Shown here: piece by piece, positions 31,226-51,323 of the stretch
How positions within the stretch are numbered: position 1 is the stretch's first letter
How the letters are laid out: every line of letters starts with the position of its first letter
From: PVC group bacterium
GTDB taxonomy: Bacteria; Verrucomicrobiota; Kiritimatiellia; CAIKKV01; CAITUY01
NCBI GenBank assembly: GCA_945870225.1
Contig: CAMBRF010000010.1
Coordinates: forward strand, 20,880 to 84,879
Direction of reading: 5' to 3'
Length of the DNA: 64,000 nucleotides
The notes under the pieces: model-generated
What the model was told of the DNA's origin: nothing
Database searches by the model: none
Seen by the model: the letters and a program-made list of their open reading frames with translations, nothing else
Made by a program: the position numbers and the translations under genes

Positions 31226-32776
31226 CTACTTCGTCGGCTCGTCCTTCTTGATTTCCGGACGGATACTGCCCAGAAACTCGGGCAGGTCCAAACCAACCTG
31301 CTTGGCCAATTCATGCATCGGCGGCAGGGCTCCCATCAATTTCTTTCCGAGGTTTGACATCCCACCGTTCTCCGATCCCCCGTCCCAGATGATCACCTTC
31401 TCGATCGGCAGATCCTGAATGGCCTTCGCCTGAATATTGGCAATCTCCGTCAACCGTTCGATCAACAACAGGGACACGGCCACCTGCGGCTCGCCGGCGG
31501 CCTGAACGAGATTTCGATAGCCCAGCGCCTTGCCGTCGAGAACGGCCTGCAAGCCCTTGCCCTCTGCCGTCATCTTCGCCAGAGTCGCCTCAGCCTGCCC
31601 TTTCGCCCGCAGTACCGACTGCTCGCGTTCGGCGTCGGCGGCGATAACCACCCGTTTCTTTTCAGCCTCGGCAGGCACGACGATCTCGGCGTTCAGGCGC
31701 GACTGTTCGCGCATGGAGCGTGCGTCCTCGGCGAGTTTCTGTGCCGTTTCCTGGGCGACCCGAATCGACCCGTCCGCCTCCCGGGCGGCGATTTCGCCCT
31801 TGTTACGGGCCTCTTCCTCCGCCACTTTCTGCGTCGCCCGATAGCTGGCTTTCTGGGCGTTGGCCGCCGTTTCCGACTGCACGGCATCGGCTTCCAGTTT
31901 GGCGGTCTGCTGACGCTTGTTTTTATCCGCCGACGCCTCACCGATCTGGGCTTCCGCCATGGCGGCCGACACCTGTTGTCGTTTCTTACGCTGGGCATCC
32001 GCCTCGCCGATTTCAGCCTCGGCTGTGGCGGCGGCCACGGCAATGCGCTGATCGCGCTGGCGCTCAGCCACACCCATCTGCCCGTGCTTTTCCTGCTCGG
32101 CCACGTCCACATTCGCCTGGTTGATAGCTTCGGCGGCCGCTTTACGTCCGATGGCCTTGATGTAACCCGACTCATCCTCGATGTCGCGGATGTTGACGTT
32201 GATCACGGCTAAACCGATTTTCTCCAGTTCCCCGGCGACGGATTCGTTCACCTTCGACATGAAGACCTGACGATCCCGATTGATATCCTCAATCCGCATC
32301 GTCGCCAACACGGCGCGCATCTGGCCGATGATGATATCCTGGGCCAAGGTCTGAATCTGCTGGGAGCTCAAACCCAGCAGACGGATCGCAGCGTTTTCCA
32401 TCACACCGGGCTGGGTCGAAATGGCCGCCGTCACCGAGGTGGGCACGGTCACTCGAATGTTCTCCTGAGACAGCGCGTTGGACAGATCGATCGGCACCAC
32501 AAACGGTTCCAGATCAAGATAATCGTACGACTGGATCAGCGGCATGACAAAGGCCGCGCCCCCGTGGACGCACTTTGAGGCCCCACTGCTCGTCTTTCCG
32601 AAGATGACCAGAATCTTATTGGATGGACACCGCTTGTATCGGCTGACGAATGTCATGAACAACACAAAGATGATGACCGCCAGCAAAATACCCAGAAAGA
32701 CCGCGACCAGAGAAACGCCCGTCTCCATCCCCGCATCTAACTGAGCCAAAACGAGTCCATTCCATATCATATTCAT
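31226..32776 (-). CDS. Flotillin-like SPFH/band-7 protein (YqiK-type)
   Basis: 516 aa. N-terminal TM helix. SPFH domain. Long Ala/Glu/Gln/Lys-rich coiled-coil with repeated 'AEA(E/Q)IGEA(D/S)A(Q/D)(R/K)KKRQQ' blocks typical of flotillins. Confidence 0.85.
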   Translation of the reverse strand: MNMIWNGLVLAQLDAGMETGVSLVAVFLGILLAVIIFVLFMTFVSRYKRCPSNKILVIFGKTSSGASKCVHGGAAFVMPLIQSYDYLDLEPFVVPIDLSNALSQENIRVTVPTSVTAAISTQPGVMENAAIRLLGLSSQQIQTLAQDIIIGQMRAVLATMRIEDINRDRQVFMSKVNESVAGELEKIGLAVINVNIRDIEDESGYIKAIGRKAAAEAINQANVDVAEQEKHGQMGVAERQRDQRIAVAAATAEAEIGEADAQRKKRQQVSAAMAEAQIGEASADKNKRQQTAKLEADAVQSETAANAQKASYRATQKVAEEEARNKGEIAAREADGSIRVAQETAQKLAEDARSMREQSRLNAEIVVPAEAEKKRVVIAADAEREQSVLRAKGQAEATLAKMTAEGKGLQAVLDGKALGYRNLVQAAGEPQVAVSLLLIERLTEIANIQAKAIQDLPIEKVIIWDGGSENGGMSNLGKKLMGALPPMHELAKQVGLDLPEFLGSIRPEIKKDEPTK

Positions 32777-33408
32777 ATAACCGAATCCTTTCGCACCGTA
32801 TCCGCCTGTTCCCTTTCAACCTCGACCGCATTGTCCCCCAAAACCCGGAGGACCTTTACCGGTGAACCGGCCGCAATTGCACTGCCGCCCTTGGCCCGCG
32901 CCTTCTGCATGGTCACAACCCCATCACACATCACCCGAATTTCTCCAGTTCCATCCCTGGGAATGTTTAGGTAAACCGTAGCCGAGTTTCCCACACAGGA
33001 GGCCACCCGCATATTACCAGTCTGGGACATGCGCTGGAGCAGGTGCAGCAGCAGGGACACCATGACCATGGCGACCAAGCCCCAAATCAAAGCGTAAGTC
33101 AACGCCCGCGCCTGCGGCAGACCCCGACTCATATATAATCCACCCGCCCAGGTAAACAGGGTGAAAAAAGCAAGAATGGAGCGAACCGAGAGCAGCTTGA
33201 AAGCCGCCACGGAATCCTGGGCATCATGGGGCGAGTCGTGTTCGAATGAAGAGCCGACCTGCCCATCGAGATCCGCATCCCCGCCGCCAAGTCCGGCCAG
33301 CGCCGAAAACATCTGGATCAGGAAAAAAACCGTAAAAAAAGCAGCGGCTACAAAGAACCACTGATTCATCGGCTGCAACGCCATCCACCATGTCATAAGT
33401 GCATCCAT
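32773..33408 (-). CDS. NfeD/YqiJ-like membrane protein (flotillin partner)
   Basis: About 211 aa from ATG at 33408 (start uncertain; other in-frame ATGs at 33396, 33384 and 33459). N-terminal TM helices plus C-terminal OB-fold-like beta domain. Stop overlaps the flotillin start (ATGA). Confidence 0.55.
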   Translation of the reverse strand: MDALMTWWMALQPMNQWFFVAAAFFTVFFLIQMFSALAGLGGGDADLDGQVGSSFEHDSPHDAQDSVAAFKLLSVRSILAFFTLFTWAGGLYMSRGLPQARALTYALIWGLVAMVMVSLLLHLLQRMSQTGNMRVASCVGNSATVYLNIPRDGTGEIRVMCDGVVTMQKARAKGGSAIAAGSPVKVLRVLGDNAVEVEREQADTVRKDSVI

Positions 33409-33495
33409 ATCCCCTCCCCTTACTACTACACCCTTTGTGTTGTTGGCGCATGCTGCCACCTGCGAGCGCTCAACGCAACCTGAATCAGACCCGCC

Positions 33496-36400
33496 TTACC
33501 CGCCCTTTTTCAGGGTGCCGAAAACAAAGAGTACAAAAAGCGCCGCGAACAGGATCGCCGTGGCAAACTTCACCAGCGCCGCCCTTTGCTGTAGCCACAC
33601 CGTCAGGCGCTCGCTGCGCAACCCGCCGTAGGCCCCCGAAAACACCACCAGCAACGGCACGATAAACGCCACATTATAAAGCGACAGGTATGCCACAGCC
33701 CCCATCCGCCCCTGCCCGGTCTTCAACATATAAAGGATGGTGGGCGCATAAACCTGCCCGGTGCAGGCCAGTTCCAGCACGGCAATCACCAACCCCGCCA
33801 CGAAGGCCGCCGCCACAAAATGCCGGTGCCGAGCGCTCTGTCGCACCGCATCATGAATCCGGGCCTTCAGGAAACCCGGCAACTGAAGCACCATGTCTCC
33901 CATGCGTCCTCTCAGACACTGCACCCCATCCCAGACACTCAGCAGGGCCACCCCGGCCACAAACACCGCCAGCCCCCCGTTCAGAACAACCCCCATCCGT
34001 CGCAGCAGGGAAAACCTGACCACCACTTCCACCAAACCCAGCCCGAGCAGAAAATACGCTATGAATATCCCCGCCACGAACGCGCCACCCACGGCCAGAA
34101 TCTCGCGCGATCCGCGCCGTGTCACCTGCAGGTATGACAGCAGGAATATGATCGTCGCAAACGCGCATGGGTTGATCCCGTCCAGCAGTCCCGCCACAAA
34201 CACAATCCCGGCACCCATGGCGGTATATCGCTCGCCCAGCGTCACGTCCGCTTGGGCAATCGCGGTTTCGCTCACTTCCCGCCATGCCGTCTCCGTCGCC
34301 TCCGAACGGCTCAGCAGCTGCCCCAACCGCTCGAATGTGATGTCAGTCCGGATGAGGAAGCCGGCCCCGCAAAACACGGCTGGCGCCACAAGACGATTTT
34401 TGTCCGGCACATCAAAACGTTCGCACAGGGCCTCATTCACACGCGCCTGATCCGGGTTGCGGATATTCATTTCCTCCACCGCCAGATCGGTAAACTCCGT
34501 TCCCAGCGCCCGCAGCAGTTCCGCGACCCGCTCGCAGTCACGGCAGCCGGGATTGCGGAAAAACACCACGCGGCGCACGGGAGCGCCCGCCCCTGCCGTC
34601 TGAACGGGGCCCGGCTCCCGTCCGCCTGGCTGCACGTCAGTGCGTCCGCTGCCGGCCGGCCCGGCCGCCGGCCTGGGCTCATTCCTACGCAGCACAACTT
34701 CCTTCGTCCCCGCCGGGGCGGCGGAGCCGGCGCTCAACTGCTTGCGCAGACTAATGAGCTGGGCGTCCTCGTTCCCGACCTGCTGGATCACGGTATCCAA
34801 CAGTGCCAGAACCTCATTCACGTTCATCTCGCGCAGCCAGCTCACCGGCGCCTCCCGTATGGATGAGAGCAACCGGTAGGCCCCCATCCGCTTGTCGGAC
34901 GTCGACTCGAGCATCTCCGCCAGCACCCGCAGATCCGTTTTTTCGCGGTTTGAAAACAGGCACAACGCTGCTGCGGTACGCACCGCCAGAGACCGGTCGC
35001 GGCTCAATGCCGTCAGCACCTCCACCACCGGCTTCGGCAAGCGTTTGCGGGTGCCGGATGAATCAGTGAAACTGCTCACGCCCTCCGTCGCCGTCTCCGC
35101 ATCGAAATAAACAGTCCACGGATCGATTCCCACACGCCCGTACACCGCCGGAACGACGGCCCGTACCCATTCCGAAGAGTCCCGTGCCACGGTCTGGATT
35201 TTTTTAAGAAACTCGCCGGGCTGATGTTTGCCCCAGGCATACCAAGCCGCCCGCCGCACATAGGGATTATCGTCACTCAGATACCGTGTCACAAGCGACT
35301 GGTCCCCCTCCCGCCAGCAGGAATCAAGCAACGTTAACGCCAGAATGCGTCGGGGATCGTCGTAACGCGCCCGGTCGTTATTCTCCAAAACCTGCCTTGC
35401 CGCTGACCCGATCTGCCGCCGGATGGCCGGACGCCGCACCACTTGAAACCATTGGTAGGATTCCCTGAACAGGTCGGACGGACTGAGCACAGAACCCGCC
35501 TCGACCGCCGCCTCGATCAGTTCCTTCACGAGGAGATCCCCCGCCGTTTCCTTCAGGCATAGCGACGCCGCCGCCTGGCGCACGTCGGCCGATGGATCCC
35601 TCAGCAACCGTTTCACCAACGGGACGGCCGCTTCACCCCGGCATGCTGTGGCCCGTTTGGCAATCTCCAGCCGTTCCTCCGCTGTGCGGGAGTCGAGGGA
35701 CGACACCAAATACGTCAGGCCTGTGCCATTCCCCATGGCCATCAGCATCAGGGCGGCCGAAAACCTCAGATCGGCATCCTGCTTCGGGTCCAGGTACACC
35801 AACGCCTCCTTGACCAGACTTCCGACCTCCTGCGAGGGTGCCGGGGCCGGTTGCGCAAGCGGCACCTCAGCAGGTGCCGCCGGTCCGAAAGCGCTGAAAA
35901 CATCCTGTAAACTGGCTTGTTCCGGCACCACGTTGGTCACCACCGTCGTAACTGCCGGTGCCGGTGCGGCTGAAAACGCCGCGAATAATCCAGCCAGCCC
36001 CTCACCCTCGCCCCCCGCCGCCACGGCATTGCTGACCACCGGGGGCGCGGCGATCATCTCATCGATATCCACACTGTCGGACATATCGATTGATCTCGAA
36101 TAGGATTCGCGCTCCGCATCGGCCTTATACGATTCGAAAACGGCCTGAACCCGGTCCTTGATTCCATCATGCAACACTTTGGCCAATTCCACCTGGACCC
36201 CGGTGTTCGCACTGCCCCCCCGCGACACAACGCGAATGGCGGCGCAGGCCACATCGCCGTTTTCATGCCGAACATACGGCAAAGCCAGCCGCCAGGAATC
36301 CGAACGGCCGTCACCCAACCCCTCCAGCACCGACAGCAACACCTCGGGGTCCTTGCCCTTTAATGCCGGGCCGAACGTCTCCGGAAGAGATTCATCCATC

Positions 36401-38115
36401 TGCCGCAATGCCGCCACGATCGGCCCCTTTAGCGGATCATCCTTAAGAAAAACCTCCGCAAGCCGTTTGACCGATTTTTTAGCCGACAATGTCGTCAGGG
36501 TCAGCACCGCCGTGCGGCGCACGAACGGATCCGCATCATCAAGACAGGCCATCACCTCCGTCTCCGCTCCCGGGGCCCGAAGCTGCCCGAGCGCCTCCAG
36601 AGCCGCCGCCCGCACCCTCCAGTTGGGATTATTCAGGCATTCCTTCACGGCCTTTGCGGCTGTGGCAGACTTCGTCCTCCCCAGACTTGACAGGGCGGCC
36701 ACCGTCAGGTCCTCGTTGGCATGGGTGAGGAATGGTCTGACCAGTTCCACCGCCTGCTGGCCCTTAAGATTTCCCGCGCCCCTGATGACCGCATGGACGA
36801 CCTCATCATCTCGCTCCGTCTTCAGCAGATCCCCCAGATACCGGAAGGCCTTGTTCTTGCCGGCGCTGATCAGGGCATCCACGGCCGCCTCCCGGATCAA
36901 CGGGTCCGACTCCCCCAGGAAATCGGCCAGCACCGGCAGGGCCCGCTCTCCCGCCACCGCCGCCGCCGCGAGACTGCGCAATCGCTCATCCTGATTCCCG
37001 AAAACCAGTCGATGCACAATCCGGCTACGCTCGAGCCCAAGCGAATCGGGCAACAGCAAGAAATAGCGCACTTCCCTCACCCGCCGGCGGGCGTCCTCAC
37101 TGGCCCCTGCAGCCGAGGCGACCCACGTCTCCAGCACCGGGATCACCGACTCCCCCGCCTGTTCAAGCATGCGCACCGCCCGTGCCGACCGGTCCCGGTC
37201 GCCGGAGGCCAGGTCCCGTATGTGCCCCGCGATCTGTTCCTCGGTCAGCGGCGCAAACACCCGCTGGGCCTCATTCGAACTCCCCTTCGCCCAGCCCTGC
37301 CACTGATCAAGCGCCACACGATTTTCGCCGGGCTCCACCCACGGATCATACCCATAGGTCTGGCCGGCCCGTTCCTCCAGAATCTCAAAGGCCCCCAGCC
37401 GCACCGATAATTTCGGATGCTTCAGGAGGTCGATCCAGTCGCGACGGGGACACGGCTCATATGCGATCAGCGCATCATGCAGCGGGGCGCGACCCGCCTT
37501 GCTCCCAAGCCCGGCCATCAGTTCCGGCCATTGGCTGACAGGAACTTCTTTCGCCTGCAGCGCCTTTAACCACTTCCCCAGTTGAGGAGAGGAGGACCCC
37601 TTCTCCGCACCCCCCTTCCTGAATCGATCCAGGAAAGTCAGAAAGGCCTCCTTGTCCATAAAGCCCTCGGCGATGGACTGCGGGCTCCCGTCACCAGAAA
37701 GGATCACCGTCGCGGGGACACCTCTCAACTGGAACAACTGCGCCGTCTTCTCATCACGGGAGGTGTCGATGCTGACGCAGATAAACCCCTCCAGCGCAGC
37801 CAGGACGTCCTTCTCCGCCAGGGTTTCCGATTTCAGCCGCACACACCAGGGGCAATTCGGCGAGGAAAACACAACCAGGACCGGCTTGAGTTCGTTGCCC
37901 GCGCGCGCCAGGGCCCCACTCAGGTTCTCCGTCCAATGGACGGTGGGAACGGCCTCCGTCTCCGCAAACCCCGCGGCGGACAACAGGCCGGCCATCACGC
38001 CCGCCAGCATGACCCTCCGGGCAAAAGTCTTCGCCGACGACACGGGCGCCGTCCCTTCAGCGGAGAAACCGGTTTTTTGACCAAAACTCATATTCGCACC
38101 CACTCGCCCCATCAA
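33496..38115 (-). CDS. Giant thioredoxin-like / HEAT-repeat / thioredoxin-like / CcdA(DsbD)-transmembrane fusion protein
   Basis: 1539 aa. Signal peptide. N-terminal Trx-fold with 'SPNCPWC'. About 1000 aa of PBS-lyase-type HEAT repeats (recurring 'VRxxAxxALGxL', 'DxDxxVRxxA'). Second Trx-fold with 'NPGCRDCE'. C-terminal 6-TM DsbD/CcdA domain with both conserved cysteines ('GINPCAF', 'LELACTGQVYAPT'). Confidence 0.7.
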   Translation of the reverse strand: MMGRVGANMSFGQKTGFSAEGTAPVSSAKTFARRVMLAGVMAGLLSAAGFAETEAVPTVHWTENLSGALARAGNELKPVLVVFSSPNCPWCVRLKSETLAEKDVLAALEGFICVSIDTSRDEKTAQLFQLRGVPATVILSGDGSPQSIAEGFMDKEAFLTFLDRFRKGGAEKGSSSPQLGKWLKALQAKEVPVSQWPELMAGLGSKAGRAPLHDALIAYEPCPRRDWIDLLKHPKLSVRLGAFEILEERAGQTYGYDPWVEPGENRVALDQWQGWAKGSSNEAQRVFAPLTEEQIAGHIRDLASGDRDRSARAVRMLEQAGESVIPVLETWVASAAGASEDARRRVREVRYFLLLPDSLGLERSRIVHRLVFGNQDERLRSLAAAAVAGERALPVLADFLGESDPLIREAAVDALISAGKNKAFRYLGDLLKTERDDEVVHAVIRGAGNLKGQQAVELVRPFLTHANEDLTVAALSSLGRTKSATAAKAVKECLNNPNWRVRAAALEALGQLRAPGAETEVMACLDDADPFVRRTAVLTLTTLSAKKSVKRLAEVFLKDDPLKGPIVAALRQMDESLPETFGPALKGKDPEVLLSVLEGLGDGRSDSWRLALPYVRHENGDVACAAIRVVSRGGSANTGVQVELAKVLHDGIKDRVQAVFESYKADAERESYSRSIDMSDSVDIDEMIAAPPVVSNAVAAGGEGEGLAGLFAAFSAAPAPAVTTVVTNVVPEQASLQDVFSAFGPAAPAEVPLAQPAPAPSQEVGSLVKEALVYLDPKQDADLRFSAALMLMAMGNGTGLTYLVSSLDSRTAEERLEIAKRATACRGEAAVPLVKRLLRDPSADVRQAAASLCLKETAGDLLVKELIEAAVEAGSVLSPSDLFRESYQWFQVVRRPAIRRQIGSAARQVLENNDRARYDDPRRILALTLLDSCWREGDQSLVTRYLSDDNPYVRRAAWYAWGKHQPGEFLKKIQTVARDSSEWVRAVVPAVYGRVGIDPWTVYFDAETATEGVSSFTDSSGTRKRLPKPVVEVLTALSRDRSLAVRTAAALCLFSNREKTDLRVLAEMLESTSDKRMGAYRLLSSIREAPVSWLREMNVNEVLALLDTVIQQVGNEDAQLISLRKQLSAGSAAPAGTKEVVLRRNEPRPAAGPAGSGRTDVQPGGREPGPVQTAGAGAPVRRVVFFRNPGCRDCERVAELLRALGTEFTDLAVEEMNIRNPDQARVNEALCERFDVPDKNRLVAPAVFCGAGFLIRTDITFERLGQLLSRSEATETAWREVSETAIAQADVTLGERYTAMGAGIVFVAGLLDGINPCAFATIIFLLSYLQVTRRGSREILAVGGAFVAGIFIAYFLLGLGLVEVVVRFSLLRRMGVVLNGGLAVFVAGVALLSVWDGVQCLRGRMGDMVLQLPGFLKARIHDAVRQSARHRHFVAAAFVAGLVIAVLELACTGQVYAPTILYMLKTGQGRMGAVAYLSLYNVAFIVPLLVVFSGAYGGLRSERLTVWLQQRAALVKFATAILFAALFVLFVFGTLKKGG

Positions 38116-38768
38116 TGCGTCAGCGCGTACACCAGGATGTTAACGTTCACTTCCATTGAATTGATAATTTCATTTCCACCACAGCAGCAACACCCCACCG
38201 TGTGGGCGGTATCGTTCAAACCTTGCGCCGAATAGATCACCACGGTTTTGCCGTCGTTTTCGATTCCTTCCAGATACGGATCCGATCCCCCATGGCTCAA
38301 TTTGAGATCCTTGATCGTTTTAACCGTTTTGAAAATGGCGTGATCCATGCTGATCCGACCCAGCTTGCGATCCGGAAGAACCTGGCGCATCTCGCGGCGG
38401 AAGGATTGGTCCCACTCCTTGCTGGAGCACCCGGCCGAAGCCAGCAGGAACCCGCCCCGGGTCAGGTATTTCTTCAGGTTTTCCCGTTCCTTGGCTGAAA
38501 GATAAAACTCCTTCTCTCCCGTCATCACCACAAACGGGAAGGCGAACAACTCCTCCGAATCAAGTTTCACGCTCTTGAAACGTCGTTCCGTGGCAATCGT
38601 GCTCTCCCGCTGAACCGCACTCAGAAATTCGTCACTGAAACACCGGGAGGTCTGAGTTCCGGCGTAAATGAGATTGGCACACCGGACCGCCGCCTCTTTC
38701 GCCTGTGTGGGAGCGGCCCACCCCATCGCCGCGCACAAAACAGCACTTAGCAGGGTTTTTCCTATCAC
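38112..38768 (-). CDS. DUF4159 domain protein (Bat/MoxR-operon-associated)
   Basis: 218 aa. Signal peptide. C-terminal Cys cluster 'HTVGCCCCGGNE'. 'GGFLLASAGCSS' core typical of DUF4159 (class I glutamine amidotransferase-like fold). Stop overlaps the downstream start. Confidence 0.65.
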   Translation of the reverse strand: MIGKTLLSAVLCAAMGWAAPTQAKEAAVRCANLIYAGTQTSRCFSDEFLSAVQRESTIATERRFKSVKLDSEELFAFPFVVMTGEKEFYLSAKERENLKKYLTRGGFLLASAGCSSKEWDQSFRREMRQVLPDRKLGRISMDHAIFKTVKTIKDLKLSHGGSDPYLEGIENDGKTVVIYSAQGLNDTAHTVGCCCCGGNEIINSMEVNVNILVYALTH

Positions 38769-41587
38769 CGCTCGCCTCCTTCCCGACCATTCTGGAAATA
38801 GCGTTTCACCGCGTCACGATACTTGACCGGCAATCTTTCAGTCTGGATGGCTTCGCCCGATGGCGCCGACCAGTCAATCCCCGGCATCCTCTCCACCACG
38901 TCGGCACGGCGCCCCGCCCCTCCGGTCCCTGATCCCCGGCCCTCCCCCGTTCCGGCTTTTTCATCCCCGCCACCCGGTTGCCCCATCGAACTCCGCCCGG
39001 GCCCGTAAACCGGGGTCCCGAGTTCGGAATACCCTTCCGAGCCCGTCCCCGATCCGCCGCCTTCATCCCCGCCCTCACCTTGCCCGGATCCCTCGCCTTG
39101 CCCGGAACCCCGGCCCTGTCCGACTCCCCTCTTGCGGCACAACGAACGGAACATCTCCTGCAGCGTCCTCTTCATATCGCCCGGCCCGAATGACGGCGAC
39201 TGCCCCCGGCATAAATCCACAAAGCAATTGGTGCCGCCCTGAGGATCAACCTGCAGGAGGGACTTGAGTTTCTCCAGCGCCAGTTGCGCCTCCCGGTAGG
39301 TGCGCAGGGCATCCGTGTTCCGGCTCGCGATCACGGCCTGGCCCATATGGTTCGAGGCTCCCGTCTGATCCAGGGCCTGAAGAAACATCATCGTGTCCTG
39401 ACCCAGCGTCTCCAGGCCTTTTGGCAACGCAACGGCGGCGGCCGATACGTCCGTCGCAAAACCCGCCAGTTCCTTGCCGATCTCACCCTGCTCCTCGCCA
39501 TACCCGGGCAGGAAGGGCAGATCCGCCGTGGCCACTTTCGCCCCGTAACGCTGCTTCAACCGCCGGACCAGTTCCTCCTGCCGCTTGATAATAACCTGGA
39601 ATCGCGCCGCGCCATCCAGAACCTTGGCCACCTTAGCCGCCGCCTCGGCGTTGAGTCCCTGCCGCATTAACGACTCCGCTTCGGCGCCCAACCGTTTGAG
39701 CATACCCTCAGCCTTGGCCGTATTTCCCGGGTCCGGCTCGCGCATGGACTCCAGTTCCTTTTTATTTTCCGCAAGCTTTGTGAGAATTTCGCCGGCCGTC
39801 GTCTTCAATGTCTTCTCACTGTCGTAGGCGGCAAAATCGGCGGCCAGTTGACGAAAAAGCTTTTCCGCATCAGCGTGGGCGGCGAGGGATTTCTGAACCG
39901 TCGCGGCGAGTTGGGTCCGGTCGGGGTTTTTCCACAACACCAACCCCTGTAATTCCTCCAGTGATTCCATCACACGCTTCATGGCCTCGGCGGCCGCCTC
40001 GTACCGTGCGGTAAATTGCTCCAGCGCTTCGCGATTACGGATCATCTCCGCATAGTCCGCTTCGCTGATCACTTTCACGCGGGCGACAACCGAAGCGCCG
40101 ACGCCGGGCAGGGTCGGGTTATTATCCAGGGCCTCCGCATAGAATTCCAGCATCTGGCCGGCCTCAACCCCCAACTGGCCAAGGTTCAGCTCCGACTCAA
40201 ATTCAACCTGCTTCCCGGCTGACCCCCTCCGCAGGGTGATACCCCGATCATTGAACCCCACCACCGACCGGATCCAGTCGATCTGCTCAATACCGAAATC
40301 GTCCTCAACATGACCTGCCACTTTTATCAAGGCCGTCGGTGTCGCCATGGAATACACCGGTGGCTCGGTCAGCGTGGTCTTCGGCACCTCATCCGGAATC
40401 CGCTTCTGATGCACAACCAGCGGATCTGCCGTGGGCGTGCCTCTGATGTCCCGAAGCGTTGCCTTGACCTCCGCATCTTCATCCAACGTCCATTCGAAAG
40501 CCATGGACCGTTCGGACACCTTGAACCCGGCAACCAGCGGGCCTGCTCCCTTTACCGCGATCCGGGGCTCCAGCGTCAGCATCCCGTCCCTGAGCGGCCG
40601 GTTGCTCGTCAGCGTCAGCGTCACTTTTGTCCCGCGCACCCCCGCCACATCCTCCTGGCCCGCCGGAAATTCGCGAACCGGCAAACGGGTATAGGACGGC
40701 GGGACAAGCCGGACGCGGGTAAGAACAATTTGCGGCTGCAACTGCAGCTCAACCTTGTGCCAATGACTCCGGGCCCGCCCCACGGCAAAACAGAACTCAA
40801 CCGGGACGGTGACATTCTCTAGCCTCTGGGCATACCGGTTATCCCCCTCCTGGAAGCAGGCAGCCCGCTGGACTTTTTGCCCGGACCGTCGCGTCATCAT
40901 CCAGACCTGATCCACCACCGCGGCACCCCGAATCGTCGCTGAAACCTCCGCCGCTCCGCCGTAAAGAATCACAGGGACGGACGGCTTCACATCAAACCTG
41001 TAATGGCTGAAAGGGGGAATATCCCGACCCGGCCAGAGCAAACGCGGGGTGATCGTCAGGAACGCCCCGATGCCGCACAACCGGACTACGGCCAGGGCTA
41101 CCAGGATTTGCAGACCCAGCACACGACCCCGGCGCGCCAACAGCTCATGCGGCCGTACGGAATCCGGATTCAGAACCGCCAGCCGGGCACATCCCTCATC
41201 CACACTGCGTCGTACCAGAAACGAGGGCAAGGCGCCTTCCCTCCCGCCGTCCTGCTGGAGTTCCCAGGCCGTCAACACATCCTTCCGCCGGTGTTGCCCG
41301 ATCCGATCAGTACGGTCCGCCGCCTCGCGCATCCCAAGCCGGGCAATCCGGATCGCTTCCGGTGCGGCCGCCGCCATCAGAGCCAGCGGCAGCAAAATAT
41401 TCAACCCGGCGCGCACCGCTTCGTCGAGCGACAGGAAGAAGTCCGCCAGAAAATACAGGGCACCCGCCACCACCGCCAACCCGATGACCCGCAGGATCAA
41501 GGCCAGCACAAGACCACGCCTCCAGACACATCTGAAGCGCTTCAGATGCTCAATAAACTCCTTGTTAGGGATTACGTTGCTGCTCAT
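38765..41587 (-). CDS. Large hypothetical membrane protein with Gly-rich low-complexity C-terminal tail (Bat-operon component)
   Basis: About 940 aa from ATG at 41587 (track ORF extends to 41689, which would overlap the upstream gene). Two N-terminal TM helices. Long Ala/Glu-rich helical region. C-terminal 'GQGRGSGQGEGSGQGEGGDEGGGSGTGSEG...GTGEGRGSGTGGAG' tract, then a conserved-looking 'RLPVKYRDAVKRYFQ' end. Confidence 0.5.
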   Translation of the reverse strand: MSSNVIPNKEFIEHLKRFRCVWRRGLVLALILRVIGLAVVAGALYFLADFFLSLDEAVRAGLNILLPLALMAAAAPEAIRIARLGMREAADRTDRIGQHRRKDVLTAWELQQDGGREGALPSFLVRRSVDEGCARLAVLNPDSVRPHELLARRGRVLGLQILVALAVVRLCGIGAFLTITPRLLWPGRDIPPFSHYRFDVKPSVPVILYGGAAEVSATIRGAAVVDQVWMMTRRSGQKVQRAACFQEGDNRYAQRLENVTVPVEFCFAVGRARSHWHKVELQLQPQIVLTRVRLVPPSYTRLPVREFPAGQEDVAGVRGTKVTLTLTSNRPLRDGMLTLEPRIAVKGAGPLVAGFKVSERSMAFEWTLDEDAEVKATLRDIRGTPTADPLVVHQKRIPDEVPKTTLTEPPVYSMATPTALIKVAGHVEDDFGIEQIDWIRSVVGFNDRGITLRRGSAGKQVEFESELNLGQLGVEAGQMLEFYAEALDNNPTLPGVGASVVARVKVISEADYAEMIRNREALEQFTARYEAAAEAMKRVMESLEELQGLVLWKNPDRTQLAATVQKSLAAHADAEKLFRQLAADFAAYDSEKTLKTTAGEILTKLAENKKELESMREPDPGNTAKAEGMLKRLGAEAESLMRQGLNAEAAAKVAKVLDGAARFQVIIKRQEELVRRLKQRYGAKVATADLPFLPGYGEEQGEIGKELAGFATDVSAAAVALPKGLETLGQDTMMFLQALDQTGASNHMGQAVIASRNTDALRTYREAQLALEKLKSLLQVDPQGGTNCFVDLCRGQSPSFGPGDMKRTLQEMFRSLCRKRGVGQGRGSGQGEGSGQGEGGDEGGGSGTGSEGYSELGTPVYGPGRSSMGQPGGGDEKAGTGEGRGSGTGGAGRRADVVERMPGIDWSAPSGEAIQTERLPVKYRDAVKRYFQNGREGGER

Positions 41588-41592
41588 TGCCG

Positions 41593-43815
41593 TTACGCCA
41601 GTCCGTTTCGTCGCCGGATCATCCACTCCATTGACAGTGCCGCCAGAATGACCACAAGGATCCATCCCCGGTCCCAGAGCGGCTCCCACACCACATTGCT
41701 TCCCTGATCAGCCTGCCGGCTCCGCGCCTCTTCCCGTTGTGACATGGCCGCGACCAGTGCACCCGCCTCCAGTACGCGGCCTCCGGATGACGCCGTGAGC
41801 TTTGCCAGAAATTCAGGATCCGGATTGACGTCGTCCCGCTCGCCCGGCGGATCCCGGATCAGCAACAGGGCGCTCAACTCATGCCCCTTGTCCTCAACGG
41901 CCGGCGACACCAGCGTCACCCGGTACAATCCGGGATCGGTCAAGGTGATGACCGCCTCCCAGGTATCCGCCCGGTCACCCGACGCCAGAACGATTTCCTG
42001 AACCGCACCGGCGCCACGCGCCACGCGCAGCCGCAAGGCCTCCCGGACGTCTTTCGCCAGACCCCGCCGCCGCACCTCGACCCGTACCGGCGTATTCGGC
42101 AATGCCGCCACAGCCCCGAGATGCAACGCATAATCATGTCCGGGCAGAAACTCCGAATATGTCCCGGCCCAGAGCATCAGCTGCGTCCATAACTCCTGAT
42201 ACATTCCTGCGGCGGCCCGGGCCGAGGGAAAGAACGACCACTGCCAGAACCCGTCGACGTTCATCACCACGGTCATGCCCTTGCCGAAACGGCGACTCAC
42301 CAACAGCGGAACCGCCTGCGACGCTCCTGTCGGACGCCCCTCCGCCAGAACCTGGGAGAACGACTTGAGCCCCACGGAGGTTTGACTGCAGCGCACCGGC
42401 GGCAGAGTGGACCACACGGGATCGTCACGCCCCGGCAGCAACCCGGCAAACAGGCCACTGTCCTCACCTTCGCTGCGCGGCGTCATCCGGCAGTCCACCG
42501 AGGAGGCTCCGCCCCATTCCACCGGCTCCAGGTCCTCAAGCCCGCCGCCCTGGTCGGCATAGGGCCGGCCACGCGCCAACACGATGCTTCCGCCCTGGTC
42601 GGCCACGAAGGACTTCAGCGCCGCAATCCGGCCGGGTGTTAGAAAATACTCCGCGCCCTTACCGAACACCACGATGTCGTAGGAACCCAATTCCGCCGCC
42701 GTGTCAGGAAAGATGGCTTTTGACTCCGAGTGGGGGACTCCGGCAGGATCGGTCTTGAAGAACCGGTCCGGAGCGGTGCGGTAGACGGCCGTCACCTCCA
42801 TGTTCGGCTGTTTGCGCAGATGCTGCCCCAGAAACTTGCTGTCCCAGTATGGCACACCCTCCACCAACAATACTCGAATCTTCCGATCAAGCGCATTGAT
42901 CTCAAATGCTGACTCGTTGTTCCGAACATCGTTCTCACCCTCCCAGGGGACCACCTGGAGTTTGTACGAGGCGTAGCCTGTCCGCTCGGGAACGACGGTA
43001 AAGGAGACCGTACCCCGGCCAACGGCGGGCAGCCGGACGTCATTGGTCGCCACAGCTCGCCCGGCCCCATCCAGCAACCGGACGGCCACAGAGACCTCGC
43101 TGGACCACCGTGACGTCACCTCGCCCTGTATACGCACGGGCTGCCCCACAAAACCGATCACCAGTCGCCGGGCGGCCTTGACGGCAATATCACGGACTTC
43201 CCTGATCTGACCGAACGGCACGGCAAACACCGGCGCATCCTGAGCCCGGGCCCGCAGCCCGGCAGACATCGGGTCAACTTCCGCAACCGTCTGGCGTCCA
43301 TCAGAGAGCAGGATGATCCCGATCGGCCGGTCTCCGCCCACGGCCCCCGCTCCCGTAACCATCTCCAGGGCGCGCCCGGCATCGGTCGTCATCCCATCGG
43401 GAACCAGCCGGGCAATCGAGGCGGCCGTCTGGCGCGCGCCGTCGACATTATCACTGAAGGCCAGGACGTCCAGATCGCACCGGTCGCCCGCCTCCTTCTC
43501 CAACTGCGCCGCCAGCCGACAGGCGGCCGCCCACCGGCTCTGTCCCGCCACATCCACCGTGGCCATACTGGCGCTACGGTCGAGCAGAATACACCAACGC
43601 GGCTTGACGTCCGCGTCCGGCTTCCGCCAGTGCCCGAAATTCAAGGCCAGCGCACTCAGGGCGGCCAGGGCCAGACACCGGGCCGCAAGGGCGAACCCGC
43701 GCGCCCGGACGGGGAGCCGGGCCGAGGCACGCCAGGCCAAGAACATGCCGCCGGCCAGGAAGATCACCACCAACACAACCCATTGTTCCATCGGCAACAG
43801 GGGATTCACCGTCAT
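41593..43815 (-). CDS. vWA-domain membrane protein (BatB-like)
   Basis: 740 aa. N-terminal TM helices. MIDAS motif 'ILLDRSASMA'. C-terminal 'RVLLVEGVPYWDSKFL' region reminiscent of a GATase1-like domain. Start overlaps the BatA stop (ATGA). Confidence 0.6.
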   Translation of the reverse strand: MTVNPLLPMEQWVVLVVIFLAGGMFLAWRASARLPVRARGFALAARCLALAALSALALNFGHWRKPDADVKPRWCILLDRSASMATVDVAGQSRWAAACRLAAQLEKEAGDRCDLDVLAFSDNVDGARQTAASIARLVPDGMTTDAGRALEMVTGAGAVGGDRPIGIILLSDGRQTVAEVDPMSAGLRARAQDAPVFAVPFGQIREVRDIAVKAARRLVIGFVGQPVRIQGEVTSRWSSEVSVAVRLLDGAGRAVATNDVRLPAVGRGTVSFTVVPERTGYASYKLQVVPWEGENDVRNNESAFEINALDRKIRVLLVEGVPYWDSKFLGQHLRKQPNMEVTAVYRTAPDRFFKTDPAGVPHSESKAIFPDTAAELGSYDIVVFGKGAEYFLTPGRIAALKSFVADQGGSIVLARGRPYADQGGGLEDLEPVEWGGASSVDCRMTPRSEGEDSGLFAGLLPGRDDPVWSTLPPVRCSQTSVGLKSFSQVLAEGRPTGASQAVPLLVSRRFGKGMTVVMNVDGFWQWSFFPSARAAAGMYQELWTQLMLWAGTYSEFLPGHDYALHLGAVAALPNTPVRVEVRRRGLAKDVREALRLRVARGAGAVQEIVLASGDRADTWEAVITLTDPGLYRVTLVSPAVEDKGHELSALLLIRDPPGERDDVNPDPEFLAKLTASSGGRVLEAGALVAAMSQREEARSRQADQGSNVVWEPLWDRGWILVVILAALSMEWMIRRRNGLA

Positions 43816-45881
43816 GTGGACACCTCCTTGGCGGGGGGACGTCCGGGCTTCCGGAACGAATCGTAAGCGGCGACGCCCCCTTCACAAAGAAGAAGGATCA
43901 GGGCCAGCCACAGTAATCGCGGCCAGAGCGGGATCCCCGCCTGCCAATCCCGGACATCACGCCCGGACGAGGCCGTCAGGGCGCCCAATCCCTTGATCTC
44001 CGTATCCGACAGGGGGCGGAGATCCGATTCGACCGCCGGGAAGTTGACCACCTCGCGACTCATTACGCGCTCACCGGCCATCCAATCATAGACTCCGGGC
44101 TGCTCCACGGGCTCTGACACTCTGGCCCCGCCCGCCGTCTCCAGCGCTCGCAATGGCACATCGGAGCCGTCCGGACCTTGCAACCGAATCTCGTCGGCGC
44201 GGGCCTCGACTCCTGTCCGCCACGTCAACCTTTGCCCGGGAACACTGTCCTTAAGCACCCGGACCGAACCCGGCAGGCCCCGTCTGGACGCCAACAACAA
44301 CTCCCCGAGAAGGGGCACAAATTCAGCCTGGTTCTGAACCGAAGAAAGTCCCTTTTCCAACGTGATATTCCACAGAATGAGCGGCAACGGGCCCCGGCAC
44401 ATCCATAAGGCGGGTGTCCCGTCCTCATAGGATATCAGCGGGTCACCCGCCGGCAATTGCGCGGTCGTGACGGCCAGCCGGCCGCGAACACGCCCACGGG
44501 CCGGGTCCCCATACTCGCCGGCCGCAAACGCCCGGAACACCGGGTGGTCCGGCGCCGCCACTTTGAGGCGGAACCCCTCGGGGTTCTCCTCCCACACGGT
44601 CACAGCCCGCGAGTCCCCCAACGGGGCGGCATTCGTCAGAACTGTCATCAATCGTGACACCGGCATACCGACCGGCGGTGCCCAGACCACCGGAATGCCC
44701 CGCTCAAGAACCCCCCGCACGCGGGAAGAATCCGTTCCCGGCCAGCCGGACAGTAACAGGACATCACCGATCATCTCGGGGTTCACCAGCGCCTCCGTCG
44801 TCAGCAAATCCGGTCGCGCCCAGCCCAAGGCGCGGCACCCTTTCGCCCACGCGGCGGCCGTCGCCTCTCCTTTACCGGAAGAGACCAATCCGACCCGCAA
44901 CAGATCCGCCGGTTCCACAACCGCCCAGCGCCGGTCATCGCCCGGAAAGGGATCCTCGGCCAGCGAAGCACTCACGGCGAACGACAAGGGGGCCGCGATC
45001 CGCTGCTTAAAGGTCACGGTCGCACGCCCCCAGGGGGGAAGGACCGCCTCATGGGAGGTCCGTGCCGATTCCACCGCCAGAATGATCGTCTTCCGTTGCG
45101 GGGCTCCTGAGAAGTTGGCCACGTCACACAAAATGGTCGCCTCCTCGCCCGGCAATGGTCGCGCAGGATCAACCTCGACACGCAGGATCGCGGCATTAGG
45201 CGACTCGCCGCGCGCCGTTCCCACACACGTCAGGCCGATATCCGGCGGCAACCGCGGCTTGAAACCGCGCCAGTTCGACGCCTGAAAATCGCTGATGATA
45301 CAGATTTCCTTCCGGCCTTCCTGCCCGGCGAGAAGTCGCACCGCCAGACGCAGGGCGGCATCGGGATCAAGCGCCTCGGAGGTCAGCCGCGCCCGCCGGA
45401 TTTCCCCTTGTAAATAGCCGATGTTCCCGCCCATCGCCGGAAACACGGCCCGGGGTCCGGCACCGGCCAGGATCAGGTCGGCGGCATCGCGTGACGACAG
45501 CCCGGCCAGAATCTCCGAAGCCTCCGCACAGGCCACGGCAAAACGCGTCTGGCTGCCGTCCGACCACCCCATCGAGGCCGACGCATCCAGGATCACCACA
45601 ACGTTACGCCTTTCAAACAGGCCTCCCCCGCCGTGCGAGAACAGCATCGGACGGAGAAAGAGAAGGATCACCGCCGCCACGGCCGCCGTGCGCAAAATCA
45701 GCAACAGCCAGTCCTTGGGCTTGCGGACCCGCTGCGTGAAACGGAGGGCCCGTTGAATGAACTCCACCGAACTGAAGTCGACGATCGGCGGTCTGGCGCG
45801 GGCGAACAGATGCATCACCAACGGCAGGACTACCAGAAGGGCCAGGGGCCACAGGATCGCGTTGAGGAAAATGACGCTCAC
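43812..45881 (-). CDS. BatA-like aerotolerance-type vWA protein
   Basis: 689 aa. N-terminal double-TM BatA region ('LLLILRTAAVAAVILLFLRP'). MIDAS 'VVILDASASMGWSDG'. Overlaps the DUF58 stop. Confidence 0.7.
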   Translation of the reverse strand: MSVIFLNAILWPLALLVVLPLVMHLFARARPPIVDFSSVEFIQRALRFTQRVRKPKDWLLLILRTAAVAAVILLFLRPMLFSHGGGGLFERRNVVVILDASASMGWSDGSQTRFAVACAEASEILAGLSSRDAADLILAGAGPRAVFPAMGGNIGYLQGEIRRARLTSEALDPDAALRLAVRLLAGQEGRKEICIISDFQASNWRGFKPRLPPDIGLTCVGTARGESPNAAILRVEVDPARPLPGEEATILCDVANFSGAPQRKTIILAVESARTSHEAVLPPWGRATVTFKQRIAAPLSFAVSASLAEDPFPGDDRRWAVVEPADLLRVGLVSSGKGEATAAAWAKGCRALGWARPDLLTTEALVNPEMIGDVLLLSGWPGTDSSRVRGVLERGIPVVWAPPVGMPVSRLMTVLTNAAPLGDSRAVTVWEENPEGFRLKVAAPDHPVFRAFAAGEYGDPARGRVRGRLAVTTAQLPAGDPLISYEDGTPALWMCRGPLPLILWNITLEKGLSSVQNQAEFVPLLGELLLASRRGLPGSVRVLKDSVPGQRLTWRTGVEARADEIRLQGPDGSDVPLRALETAGGARVSEPVEQPGVYDWMAGERVMSREVVNFPAVESDLRPLSDTEIKGLGALTASSGRDVRDWQAGIPLWPRLLWLALILLLCEGGVAAYDSFRKPGRPPAKEVST

Positions 45882-46753
45882 TGGGTCAACCTCTCAAACA
45901 GGCGGTAAAAATGCGTATCGGTCCGGGCCACGGTGTAGTCAACGTTCCGCCGCACCGCCAGATCGCGCAGGGCATCGATATGCCGGCCCATCGCCTGGAG
46001 ATAACCCTCCCGCACATCATCGGTGTGTGCCGTGACCCGCTGTCCGGTTTCAAGATCCCGGAACGACACCAGCCCCTTGTCGTCCAACTCCAGTTCGGCC
46101 GGCGTCAGGACATGAAACAGGAAAATCTTGAACCCGCGATGCAGGTAGGGCCCCAGCGCGGAGAAGATCGCCGCCGGATCGTCAAAGAAATCCGACACCA
46201 CAACCAGGATGCCGCGCCGTTTGAGCAGGGGAAAGGAATGCCGCAAAGACTCCGCCAGCGATGTACGCTCCCCGGGCTGATTCCGTTCCAGCAGGTTCAA
46301 TAACCCGTTTAAATGCAGGTTGGTGCTGCCCGGCGGGATGAACGTCCGGATCGTTTTGTCGAATAACTGGAGCGACACCCGATCCCCGCCGCGAATAACG
46401 AGATAGGCGAGACAGGCCGTAAAGAACGAGGCGTACTCCAGTTTCGACGGATTGCTCCCAAAGCCCATCGAGGCGCTGCTGTCCAGGAACAGGTGGCAAT
46501 CCATACTGGTCTCATGATCGTAAGTCCGAAGGTAGAACCGGTCCGTACGCCCGAAGACCCGCCAGTCAACCAGCGCCAGGTCATCCCCCGGAACGTACTG
46601 GCGATAGTCGCGGAACTCGACGGACGACCCGCGTGCCCGGGACACATGCCGACCCGCAAAATAACCTTCCACCACGGCCTTGGGTGAAAATTCAAACCCG
46701 GCCAGCTGCCGGATATCCTCCGGCCGCAAGTATTGGAATCGTCGATGTGTCAC
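45878..46753 (-). CDS. DUF58 domain protein (MoxR-associated)
   Basis: 291 aa. 'FRDYRQYVPGDDLALVDWRVFGRTDRFYLRTYDHET' and 'LFLDSSASMGF' are typical of DUF58. Confidence 0.8.
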   Translation of the reverse strand: MTHRRFQYLRPEDIRQLAGFEFSPKAVVEGYFAGRHVSRARGSSVEFRDYRQYVPGDDLALVDWRVFGRTDRFYLRTYDHETSMDCHLFLDSSASMGFGSNPSKLEYASFFTACLAYLVIRGGDRVSLQLFDKTIRTFIPPGSTNLHLNGLLNLLERNQPGERTSLAESLRHSFPLLKRRGILVVVSDFFDDPAAIFSALGPYLHRGFKIFLFHVLTPAELELDDKGLVSFRDLETGQRVTAHTDDVREGYLQAMGRHIDALRDLAVRRNVDYTVARTDTHFYRLFERLTQ

Positions 46754-46773
46754 GTGACTCCCGGGAAACTGGA

Positions 46774-47754
46774 TCAGAGAGAGGCTTCAAGCTTTTCGAT
46801 GATCTGATCCACGGTCACCCCTTCGCCCGTCGCATTATAGTTCGGGATCACGCGGTGACGCAGAACAGGCTTCATAACTGCCCGCACCTCCTCGAGTGAG
46901 GCGGCGGACTGACCACGCAGCAGGGCCAAGGCCTTGACCGCGCTGGTCATGGTCTGTGAGGCCCGCGGACCGGCACCCCAGGCGACATAACGCTTCACAT
47001 GGTCGCCTGCCAGCGGCGAGCTCGGGCGGGTCGCGTTGACCGTTCGCAGGATCGCAGACAACACATGGTCCGGCACCGGCACATCCAGGATCATATCCTG
47101 CAGGGCAAGAACCTCGTCAGCCTCCAGGACTTTGGGTGTTTCAGCACAATGACGCCCCGTCGTGCGCAGCACAATATCGCGCTCCTGGTCCAGGGGCGGG
47201 TAGTCCATGGTCAGGCTGAAGAAAAACCGGTCCAGTTGGGCCTCGGGCAGCGGATAGGTTCCCTCATGCTCAATGGGGTTCTGGGTGGCGAACACAATGA
47301 ACGGCTCCGTCAGCTTCATGCTCTTACCCGAGACCGTGACCTGCTTCTCCTGCATGGCTTCCAGCAGGGCGGCCTGGGTTTTCGGCGGCGTACGGTTGAT
47401 TTCGTCGGCCAGAATCAGGTTGGCGAAGATCGGGCCGGGCGCAAACTCGAACCGGCGACGCCCGCCCCCTTCCTCCTGCAGAATCTCACCTCCGGTGATG
47501 TCCATCGGCATCAGGTCCGGCGTGAACTGGATACGCCGGCTGACCAAGCCAAGGGTCCTGCCCAGCGTCGTCACCAACAGGGTCTTGGCCAGCCCCGGAA
47601 CGCCAATGATCAGGCAATGCCCCTTGCACAAAAGAGAGGTCAGCAACAACTCCACGACAGCATCCTGCCCGACAATCACCGTGCCGATCGCCTTCCGGAG
47701 CGCCTCCATTTGAGAACGCACCTTGTCCCACTTTTCACCCGCGCTTTGTGTCAT
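46774..47754 (-). CDS. MoxR-family AAA+ ATPase
   Basis: 326 aa. Walker A 'GVPGLAKT'. Walker B 'ILLADEINR'. MoxR-specific 'TQNPIEHEGTYPLPEAQLDRF'. Confidence 0.9.
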   Translation of the reverse strand: MTQSAGEKWDKVRSQMEALRKAIGTVIVGQDAVVELLLTSLLCKGHCLIIGVPGLAKTLLVTTLGRTLGLVSRRIQFTPDLMPMDITGGEILQEEGGGRRRFEFAPGPIFANLILADEINRTPPKTQAALLEAMQEKQVTVSGKSMKLTEPFIVFATQNPIEHEGTYPLPEAQLDRFFFSLTMDYPPLDQERDIVLRTTGRHCAETPKVLEADEVLALQDMILDVPVPDHVLSAILRTVNATRPSSPLAGDHVKRYVAWGAGPRASQTMTSAVKALALLRGQSAASLEEVRAVMKPVLRHRVIPNYNATGEGVTVDQIIEKLEASL

Positions 47755-50991: not shown

Positions 50992-51323
50992 TATACATCC
51001 GAACACATTACGACTCATCAGGCTTCTCCTTTTTCACCGGTTAACGACATTTGGCAGCATTCCAGAAAACATATGCCGAAGCTGATCAGGCGGCAGTCGG
51101 ACAGGGAGTTCTTGAAGGAAGAACGTAGATTATCATGCGGTGGTGATGTCACCATGAGGGGAACATTGCTTTTTCCAGATGCAATACGCAATAAGAAAAA
51201 ATGGAAGAAGTCGAGGAGCCTCGCCTGGTCTTTTCACTCTCATCAGGATGAAGGGTGTCCGCAAAAAGACCCGACCGGTTTTTATCCAGCCATTCGTTTA
51301 TTCCGTGAACAAGTCCGACCCTT

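Follow-up and report, generated by a model that had tools for sequence, protein, structure and literature searches.

The stretch of DNA analysed here, called the window below, comprises 64,000 nucleotides from a PVC group bacterium of the Kiritimatiellia (assembly GCA_945870225.1, contig CAMBRF010000010.1, positions 20,880 to 84,879 of the forward strand). Its minus strand carries the gene of an uninterrupted, conserved membrane protein of 1539 residues, in which a thioredoxin (Trx)-fold domain, two blocks of HEAT repeats, a glutaredoxin (Grx)-like domain and a six-transmembrane (6-TM) domain are joined in a single polypeptide. On the same strand the gene is preceded, in this order, by genes for MoxR, DUF58, BatA-N+VWA, a second VWA protein, a protein of 974 amino acids (aa) and DUF4159 (the first five span 38765..47754). 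The position downstream of BatA/vWA/MoxR genes had already been noted in a first-pass annotation made from the letters of the window, and Pfam confirms the neighbours on the same strand. The operon linkage is strong. Bat-type MoxR/vWA operons are widespread and have been linked for 25 years to aerotolerance, oxidative-stress survival and virulence; we know of no biochemical function for them. The parts of the locus, together with genes of related loci discussed below, are listed in Table 1; the coordinates of all parts were checked by re-translation, and the boundaries of the HEAT blocks are approximate.

Table 1. Positions of the gene, its parts and its operon neighbours in the window, and of selected genes at related loci
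Feature	Position	Strand	Remarks
Whole open reading frame	33496..38115	-	1539 codons from TTG; 1538 from ATG one codon further on
N-terminal region, signal-peptide-like hydrophobic segment (RRVMLAGVMAGLLSAAGFA followed by ETE)	37957..38115	-	start codon overlaps DUF4159 stop
Thioredoxin-fold domain, Thioredoxin_7 / DsbD-gamma-like	37591..37935	-	CPWC 37843-37854; candidate cis-Pro P134 invariant
HEAT block 1, aa 196-690	36046..37530	-	Pfam HEAT_2; PDB alphaRep/HEAT matches
Low-complexity Ala/Pro-rich linker between HEAT blocks	35731..36045	-	21% Ala, 10.5% Pro; consensus poorly conserved
HEAT block 2, aa 796-1135	34711..35730	-	HEAT motifs, alphaRep match, tblastn conservation
Pro/Gly-rich tether, aa 1136-1180	34576..34710	-	20% Gly, 16% Pro
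Glutaredoxin-like thioredoxin-fold domain	34246..34575	-	CRDC 34534-34545; candidate cis-Pro P1245 invariant
6-TM domain, probable DsbD/LysE superfamily	33499..34245	-	six hydrophobic segments, aa 1302-1539
Cys1317 motif (N-P-C) in TM1	34165-34173	-	
Cys1451 motif (C-T-G-Q) in TM4	33754-33765	-	
DUF4159 gene, proposed client/partner	38112..38768	-	Pfam PF13709, 1.2e-28; Sec-type signal peptide
974-aa protein	38765-41689	-	no Pfam family; operon member
VWA (second)	41593-43815	-	Pfam
BatA-N+VWA	43812-45881	-	Pfam PF07584+PF13519
DUF58	45878-46753	-	Pfam PF01882
MoxR	46774-47754	-	Pfam PF07726
Cytochrome c gene after CCCC-type DUF4159	L083:1255-2766		
Cytochrome c gene after CCCC-type DUF4159	L086:1070-2581		
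Cytochrome c gene after CCCC-type DUF4159	L089:4316-6061		
Cytochrome c gene after CCCC-type DUF4159	L096:4600-6144		
Trx-HEAT-Grx variant on a single C-terminal TM anchor	L032:10584-14516		no 6-TM domain
Trx-HEAT-Grx variant on a single C-terminal TM anchor	L042:10492-14544		no 6-TM domain
P0102, DUF4159-Grx-6TM fusion	L005:10001-11677		no HEAT repeats

The first-pass annotation had read the locus as one 1539-aa open reading frame (ORF) whose start overlaps the DUF4159 stop, and had itself allowed that genes might have been joined by a sequencing error. The frame proved to be real, with no ambiguous base (0 N) in it. Its ATG, at which the identical database protein P0001 also starts, overlaps the TGA that ends the DUF4159 gene by a single base, A (cATTGATGg). 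An artefact of sequencing or assembly could be suspected from one relative, L017, whose annotation shows two genes (926 and 503 aa). A genuine two-gene split was rejected there, as the two pieces are separated by a scaffold gap of 10 N and lie in the same frame. Furthermore, at all 29 metagenome loci in which the HEAT block 1 and TM parts were both detected, they stand in one frame of 1344-1691 codons, and about 30 full-length relatives with 31-74% identity are found as database proteins in public data from independent samples. The recurrence of the single-ORF architecture in 29/29 such loci rules out a sequencing-error fusion, and the probability left to this explanation is practically nil. 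The homologue at another locus, L069, is frameshifted.

The order of the domains in the protein is signal peptide, DsbD-gamma-like Trx domain (CPWC), HEAT block 1, linker, HEAT block 2, tether, Grx-like domain (CRDC) and 6-TM domain. Pfam and hydropathy bear out the order read in the first pass, with two amendments: the second domain, taken for a plain Trx, is glutaredoxin-like by Pfam, and the array of about 1000 aa, well supported as HEAT by a HEAT_2 score of 129 bits, consists of two blocks split by the Ala/Pro-rich linker. Six cysteines, namely the CPWC pair, the CRDC pair, Cys1317 and Cys1451, are invariant or near-invariant among 17 full-length homologues and 50 homologues of the Grx-6TM module.

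In the N-terminal Trx domain, aa 61-163 match PF13098 (Thioredoxin_2) at 48 bits and PF13899 (Thioredoxin_7) at 43 bits (cutoff 27). CPWC occupies aa 88-91; across the full-length homologues the conservation of Cys88 and Cys91 is 90% or more, and P134 does not vary. A hidden Markov model (HMM) match above cutoff, a CxxC motif and a cis-Pro loop, the marks of a thioredoxin fold, are therefore all present. In addition, NCBIfam matches were obtained to the C-terminal domains of DsbD and TsoB, and the closest PDB entries were those of DsbD gamma (4ip6/4ip1, E ~4e-3). The HEAT_2 score (129 bits, cutoff 27.7) is spread over six stretches of tandem repeats, and the region matches alphaRep/HEAT proteins in the PDB down to 5.7e-16. 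The most conserved motif of the soluble part, VRLGAxExLEExxGxxxG(Y/F)DPW...W..W, lies in HEAT block 1 at aa 238-275 and contains invariant columns. HEAT-type D-x-x-VR-x-x-A-A motifs were located at aa 780, just upstream of HEAT block 2, and at aa 842 and 1042; block 2 also contains an alphaRep match in the PDB (aa 943-996) and is kept in most relatives as judged by tblastn. In the membrane-proximal domain, Pfam Glutaredoxin covers aa 1183-1217 (32 bits, cutoff 22.9), with CRDC at aa 1191-1194; this CxxC starts helix 1 and is accompanied by a conserved cis-Pro, as in Trx and Grx folds. The dipeptide of this motif varies among relatives, which carry CRDC, CPDC, CHDC, CKEC and others.

The C-terminal domain contains Cys1317 in TM1 and Cys1451 in TM4, both invariant in 50 diverse homologues, including those that have no HEAT repeats, in the contexts N-P-C and E-L-A-C-T-G-Q-V-Y-x-P, respectively. 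The two conserved membrane cysteines claimed in the first pass are thus secure. The distribution of lysine and arginine across the loops is strongly asymmetric. Mean counts are 3.0, 8.7 and 2.3 on loops 1-2, 3-4 and 5-6 (total 14.0), which are predicted to be cytoplasmic, against 0.8 on loop 2-3, 1.5 on loop 4-5 and 0.1 at the C-terminus (total 2.4, or 4.4 with the 11 residues before TM1). By the positive-inside rule, the N-terminus of the TM domain, and hence the Grx domain, would be periplasmic. Clear signal peptides were also found in the 12 Trx-less relatives examined. Signal peptides in all variants and the predicted topology together place the soluble part of about 1250 residues in the periplasm, in agreement with the first-pass view that both CxxC domains face that side. 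Hydropathy, AlphaFold2 models and the charge distribution agree on a six-TM core with both termini on the periplasmic side, the layout of the DsbD superfamily; DsbD and CcdA are likewise oriented with the N-terminus out. The models reached a predicted local distance difference test score of 88 for Grx+TM and 85 for the TM domain alone. In the former, TM1 is broken at N-P-C and TM4 after C-T-G-Q; in the latter, TM4 is one continuous helix. Comparison with solved CcdA gave a moderate fold match, which is supportive and not decisive. Judged by its sequence, the domain is not CcdA/DsbD at the family level, and it is probably a divergent member of the DsbD superfamily. Membership of the superfamily is favoured by the two invariant cysteines, by a weak match of all 50 homologues to ArsG, a DsbD_2-type family, by matches of DsbD PRK00293 to 3/50 homologues, and by matches of individual members to DsbD_2 (7.8e-6), DsbD_TM (8.7e-6) and SfLAP (4.5e-6). 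Of the CcdA-type assignment made in the first pass, the superfamily level therefore stands and the family level does not.

Among the characterised systems close to the protein is DsbD, with which it shares the combination, in one polypeptide, of a membrane domain bearing two essential cysteines and periplasmic Trx-fold domains with CxxC motifs, the N-terminal one resembling DsbD-gamma. In DsbD, electrons flow from the cytoplasm to the membrane Cys pair, on to a Trx-fold domain and finally to the client (PMC3322552). The protein of the window differs in having 6 TM segments rather than 8, no Ig-like alpha domain and about 950 aa of HEAT repeats inserted. Its membrane-adjoining Trx-fold domain is N-terminal to the membrane domain and glutaredoxin-like, its sequence similarity to DsbD falls below family thresholds, and its gene sits in a dedicated operon, whereas DsbD is a general hub. 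The published classes of the superfamily are DsbD, CcdA and ScsB (PMC3322552). ScsB, DipZ and other fusions of the superfamily are parallel in design: the conduit has been joined time and again to one or another periplasmic domain that confers specificity, and its gene stands in an operon of its own, ScsB having ScsC/peroxiredoxin clients. However, the classes described lack HEAT repeats and have no Grx-like domain on the N-terminal side of the membrane domain (PMC3322552).

The linkage of the gene to its operon extends well beyond the window. The same gene order was found in six loci (L001, L002, L003, L008, L012 and L016) and in many metagenome loci. DUF4159 lies immediately upstream of the HEAT-redox gene in 8/8 genome or contig loci having upstream DNA, and all five loci whose flanks are long enough contain the full set of six genes; the genes downstream differ among loci. 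A metagenome search was also run from the DUF4159 side with the patterns TSRCFSDE and GCCCCGGN, by which at least 450 loci were matched and 80 kept; neighbours were counted in the 37 kept loci that extend 5 kb or more past DUF4159 on its downstream side. Herein, a HEAT-Grx(-TM) protein was found next to DUF4159 in 33 loci, immediately downstream on the same strand in 32 and convergent in L050, where the homologue is full-length (1630 aa). The pair usually ends an operon of the form MoxR-DUF58-BatA/VWA-VWA-X-DUF4159. The remaining four loci carry next to DUF4159 a multihaem cytochrome c of 500-580 aa with CxxCH motifs (PF13435 Cytochrome_C554, ~1e-16), followed in L096 by a Trx_7-HEAT protein without Grx or TM. 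Counting these four, every locus surveyed has a predicted periplasmic redox protein beside DUF4159.

DUF4159 itself has seven conserved cysteines, of which C43, C114 and CCCC193-196 (GCCCCGGNEI) are invariant and C30 nearly so; the solved homologue 4i66 has no equivalent of C114. The protein is 56-90% identical across loci between which the HEAT-redox protein is only 31-38% identical. It is the operon protein richest in Cys and the one with the most conserved Cys; elsewhere in the operon conserved Cys are few, with none in the second VWA protein and three in the 974-aa protein (C278, C300 and C827), which also has a Gly/Ser/Glu-rich low-complexity stretch near its C-terminus and is a possible second client. 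An Fe-S cofactor for the CCCC motif, comparable to the HdrB 'CCG' type, was considered and appears unlikely because the DUF4159 signal peptide is of the Sec type and not of the twin-arginine type. A natural fusion was found in P0102, in which the first ~150 residues of DUF4159 run straight into Grx-6TM; this protein was seen on five contigs, outside any MoxR/Bat operon.

The operon resembles Bat operons in having MoxR AAA+, DUF58 and BatA-N/VWA genes in the same order. Family scans of the operon proteins gave no match to TPR or BatD families of the BatC/BatD/BatE type, which indicates a distinct PVC-type arrangement and not a canonical batA-E operon. The PVC-type set adds a second VWA protein, a protein of ~930-970 aa without Pfam domains, DUF4159 and the HEAT-redox protein; in the literature searched, no DsbD-like gene was found in published Bat operons. 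Published Bat-type phenotypes are tied to oxidative stress and reducing power (PMC3557215, PMC11834572). In B. fragilis, for instance, reducing agents were reported to rescue bat mutants in part, and it was suggested that the Bat proteins serve to export reducing power (Tang 1999, summarised in PMC3557215; also PMC11834572). The operon linkage of the HEAT-redox protein suggests a dedicated supply of such reducing power to a Bat-like machine.

It is proposed, with about an even chance of being right, that the gene encodes a dedicated periplasmic thiol-reductase system in one polypeptide, which would dock through its HEAT repeats to products of its operon, DUF4159 being the likeliest client. The 6-TM domain would carry two electrons via Cys1317 and Cys1451 from a cytoplasmic thioredoxin-type donor over the inner membrane and would reduce the adjoining CRDC domain, which would be the equivalent of DsbD-gamma, although placed N-terminal to the membrane domain. 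Where the N-terminal CPWC domain is present, as in the sub-clade of the window protein, CRDC could hand electrons on to it. The HEAT solenoid of about 950 residues would confer specificity by docking the redox heads to proteins encoded in the same operon, which would make it an unusual example of a HEAT solenoid that acts as the periplasmic targeting element of a redox enzyme. The seven cysteines of the secreted, translationally coupled DUF4159 would be maintained in the reduced state, or returned to it after exposure to oxygen. Of this scheme, the analysis establishes which domains are present, how well the six cysteines are conserved, the topology and the linkage of the genes; the course of the electrons, their cytoplasmic source, docking by the HEAT repeats and the choice of DUF4159 are inferred. 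DUF4159 is favoured as the client because it is adjacent and translationally coupled, is the richest in Cys, is fused to the module in P0102 and stands beside a cytochrome where the thiol system is missing. The first-pass annotation had named the Bat vWA complex as a candidate partner; the data single out DUF4159 rather than that complex as a whole. Its overall interpretation is thus partly supported, with the TM domain redefined as divergent and the likely client narrowed to DUF4159.

Several observations weigh against this reading. Concerning the membrane domain, the window protein matches neither Pfam DsbD (PF02683) nor DsbD_2 (PF13386) even at E=10, and among 50 relatives only one and three, respectively, match DsbD_TM and DsbD_2, below threshold (~8e-6). 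A profile of the TM domain retrieved nothing from PDB sequences, CcdA included, at E<=10. By hhalign, alignment of this profile with one DsbD_2 protein (L005) had a probability of 2.8%, with only N-P-C and S-P-C aligned, and comparison of TM1-3 with TM4-6 detected no inverted sequence repeat. TM4 reads A-C-T-G-Q-V-Y-x-P, without the Pro-Cys of classical CcdA/DsbD. Concerning the system as a whole, searches of the literature on DUF4159, on HEAT+CcdA+thioredoxin and on Akkermansia+MoxR found no characterised member, as the first-pass annotation had supposed. Short stand-alone Grx-6TM proteins occur in unrelated housekeeping contexts, from which it follows that Grx-6TM would be a general device and that the HEAT array ties the module to the Bat-like operon. 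In two loci (L032 and L042) the Trx-HEAT-Grx protein has only a single TM anchor, so that some lineages either do without the conduit part or provide it in trans. Finally, the DUF4159 part of P0102 has no CCCC tail, and the CCCC motif therefore need not be the client site.

A further difficulty is that the best-scoring named family for the TM domain is ArsG (NF040495, DsbD_2-type, arsEFG), which has been reported as an organoarsenical efflux permease and not as an electron carrier (PMC9144182). On this similarity, the 6-TM domain could be a thiol-lined transporter of the ArsG or MerT kind for a soft metal, a metalloid or a thiol, with the CxxC and CCCC motifs acting as metallochaperone ligands that pass a metal ion to or from the Bat-like complex, and no electrons would be carried. 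The ArsG model matches all 50 homologues over TM1-3 only, and weakly: the best E-value is 1.7e-7, and the scores are 17-40 bits where the family cutoff is 200. No ars genes surround the target locus. The layout of one Cys in TM1 and one in TM4, with the N-terminus out and a fused Trx-fold domain carrying CxxC and a cis-Pro, is the hallmark of DsbD-type proteins (PMC3322552), and replacement of the protein by a multihaem cytochrome in four loci points to electrons rather than metal. Transport of a metal is accordingly regarded as an unlikely function. As a separate observation, L005:1695-4800 holds an arsEFG-like cluster (ArsR - ArsP - Thioredoxin_3 - 161-aa - DsbD_2) in which a small Trx-fold protein lies beside DsbD_2; the ArsG-type 'permease' may itself be part of a thiol relay.

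The CcdA family, the minimal 6-TM conduit (PDB 5vkv), differs from the present domain in two more respects: the gene is not linked to cytochrome c maturation genes, and a long, basic TM3-TM4 loop (aa 1398-1430) is specific to the family of the window protein. This loop, with the highly conserved pattern M-x-L-Q-L-P-x-x-L-K-x-x-I, is predicted to be cytoplasmic and could be a docking site for the electron donor; we know of no counterpart in CcdA.

The direction of electron flow must be weighed as well. Trx-fold domains fused to membrane redox domains are also found in oxidative pathways, for example in VKOR-Trx, and clients with many Cys often require isomerisation. The protein could thus belong to an oxidative system similar to DsbB or VKOR-Trx, which would form or isomerise disulfides in DUF4159 and other secreted operon proteins, the HEAT array being a folding platform. 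The varying CxxC dipeptides of the Grx-like domain are compatible with this, since they leave the redox potential not fixed by sequence. On the other hand, family scans of the protein and its homologues found no quinone-binding feature and no DsbB or VKOR similarity, and the three DsbD-superfamily classes are all reductive (PMC3322552). The oxidative scheme is considered improbable, and it largely merges with the thiol-reductase scheme, as an isomerase would need a reductive conduit anyway.

The variants of the family bear on another alternative, according to which the main role of the protein is to hold or anchor the Bat-like MoxR/vWA complex as a scaffold, and its redox domains are a sensor that switches assembly with the redox state of the periplasm rather than a supplier of reductant. 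HEAT arrays bind proteins as scaffolds; in the soluble part, conservation is highest in a motif of HEAT block 1 and not in a redox domain; and the single-anchor variants have no conduit. The N-terminal Trx domain is dispensable in most relatives; it is missing from 23/32 same-strand long-form loci and hence cannot be the essential output domain. Against a sensing role, the Grx CxxC and both TM Cys are invariant in the 50 homologues, HEAT-less ones included, which favours a catalytic relay, and replacement by a multihaem cytochrome suits delivery of electrons better than sensing. Such a scaffold is therefore judged to have a small chance of being the correct explanation, and the dedicated thiol reductase is retained as the working model.

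The architecture is common in PVC bacteria, not unique, and uncharacterised; it is widespread in PVC metagenomes under automatically assigned compound names, for example 'HEAT repeat protein/cytochrome c biogenesis protein CcdA/glutaredoxin' and 'thioredoxin fold domain-containing protein'. A genome scan with the single protein returned eight loci, all in metagenome-assembled genomes (MAGs) labelled Lentisphaerales, Lentisphaeraceae, Kiritimatiellia/Kiritimatiellota or Chthoniobacteraceae. The long HEAT form is common in MAGs of Lentisphaerae, Kiritimatiellia and Verrucomicrobia. The Grx-6TM module is far more abundant: among representatives of clusters formed at 50% identity, 6971 match at E<=1e-3 and 2105 of them at E<=1e-30, and most have no Pfam annotation. 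Among the best 150 representatives, 50 are long forms of 1330-1550 aa, and most of the others measure ~500 aa and carry a single Grx-like domain or two. This brings to light a large branch of the DsbD superfamily, of Grx-6TM architecture, that no Pfam model covers.

With a conserved, translationally coupled thiol conduit closing a Bat-like operon, the old idea of 'reducing power' can be put to a direct test. The handles that the conduit offers include defined Cys, a defined candidate client in DUF4159 and the cytochrome-c variants as a natural control. A broader and more tentative proposal, which we regard as possible and on balance doubtful, is that DUF4159, marked by the invariant GCCCCGG, forms the redox-dependent core of a PVC-wide periplasmic MoxR/vWA machine that is fed with electrons interchangeably by a HEAT-targeted thiol conduit or a multihaem cytochrome c. 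If true, this would provide the first molecular link of Bat-type operons to the 'export of reducing power' proposed in 1999 and would define SP-(Trx)-HEAT-Grx-6TM (SP, signal peptide) as a fourth architectural class of the DsbD superfamily.

Around the ends of the operon, scans for promoters and terminators gave nothing beyond shuffled expectation. Directly upstream of MoxR, a 1060-aa secreted-looking protein with no Pfam match is encoded at 47836-51018 on the minus strand. After the HEAT-redox gene, at 31226-33459 on the same strand, lie genes for an NfeD-like membrane protein (228 aa, weak PF01957) and a flotillin/SPFH protein (516 aa); this pair is probably a separate unit, because it is kept downstream only in the closest relative, L013. 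Further along the window, a minus-strand ORF of 1132 aa at 23092-26490 appears by eye to be a fusion of an MFS-type lysophospholipid transporter, an acyltransferase and an AMP-dependent ligase (Aas/LplT-like).

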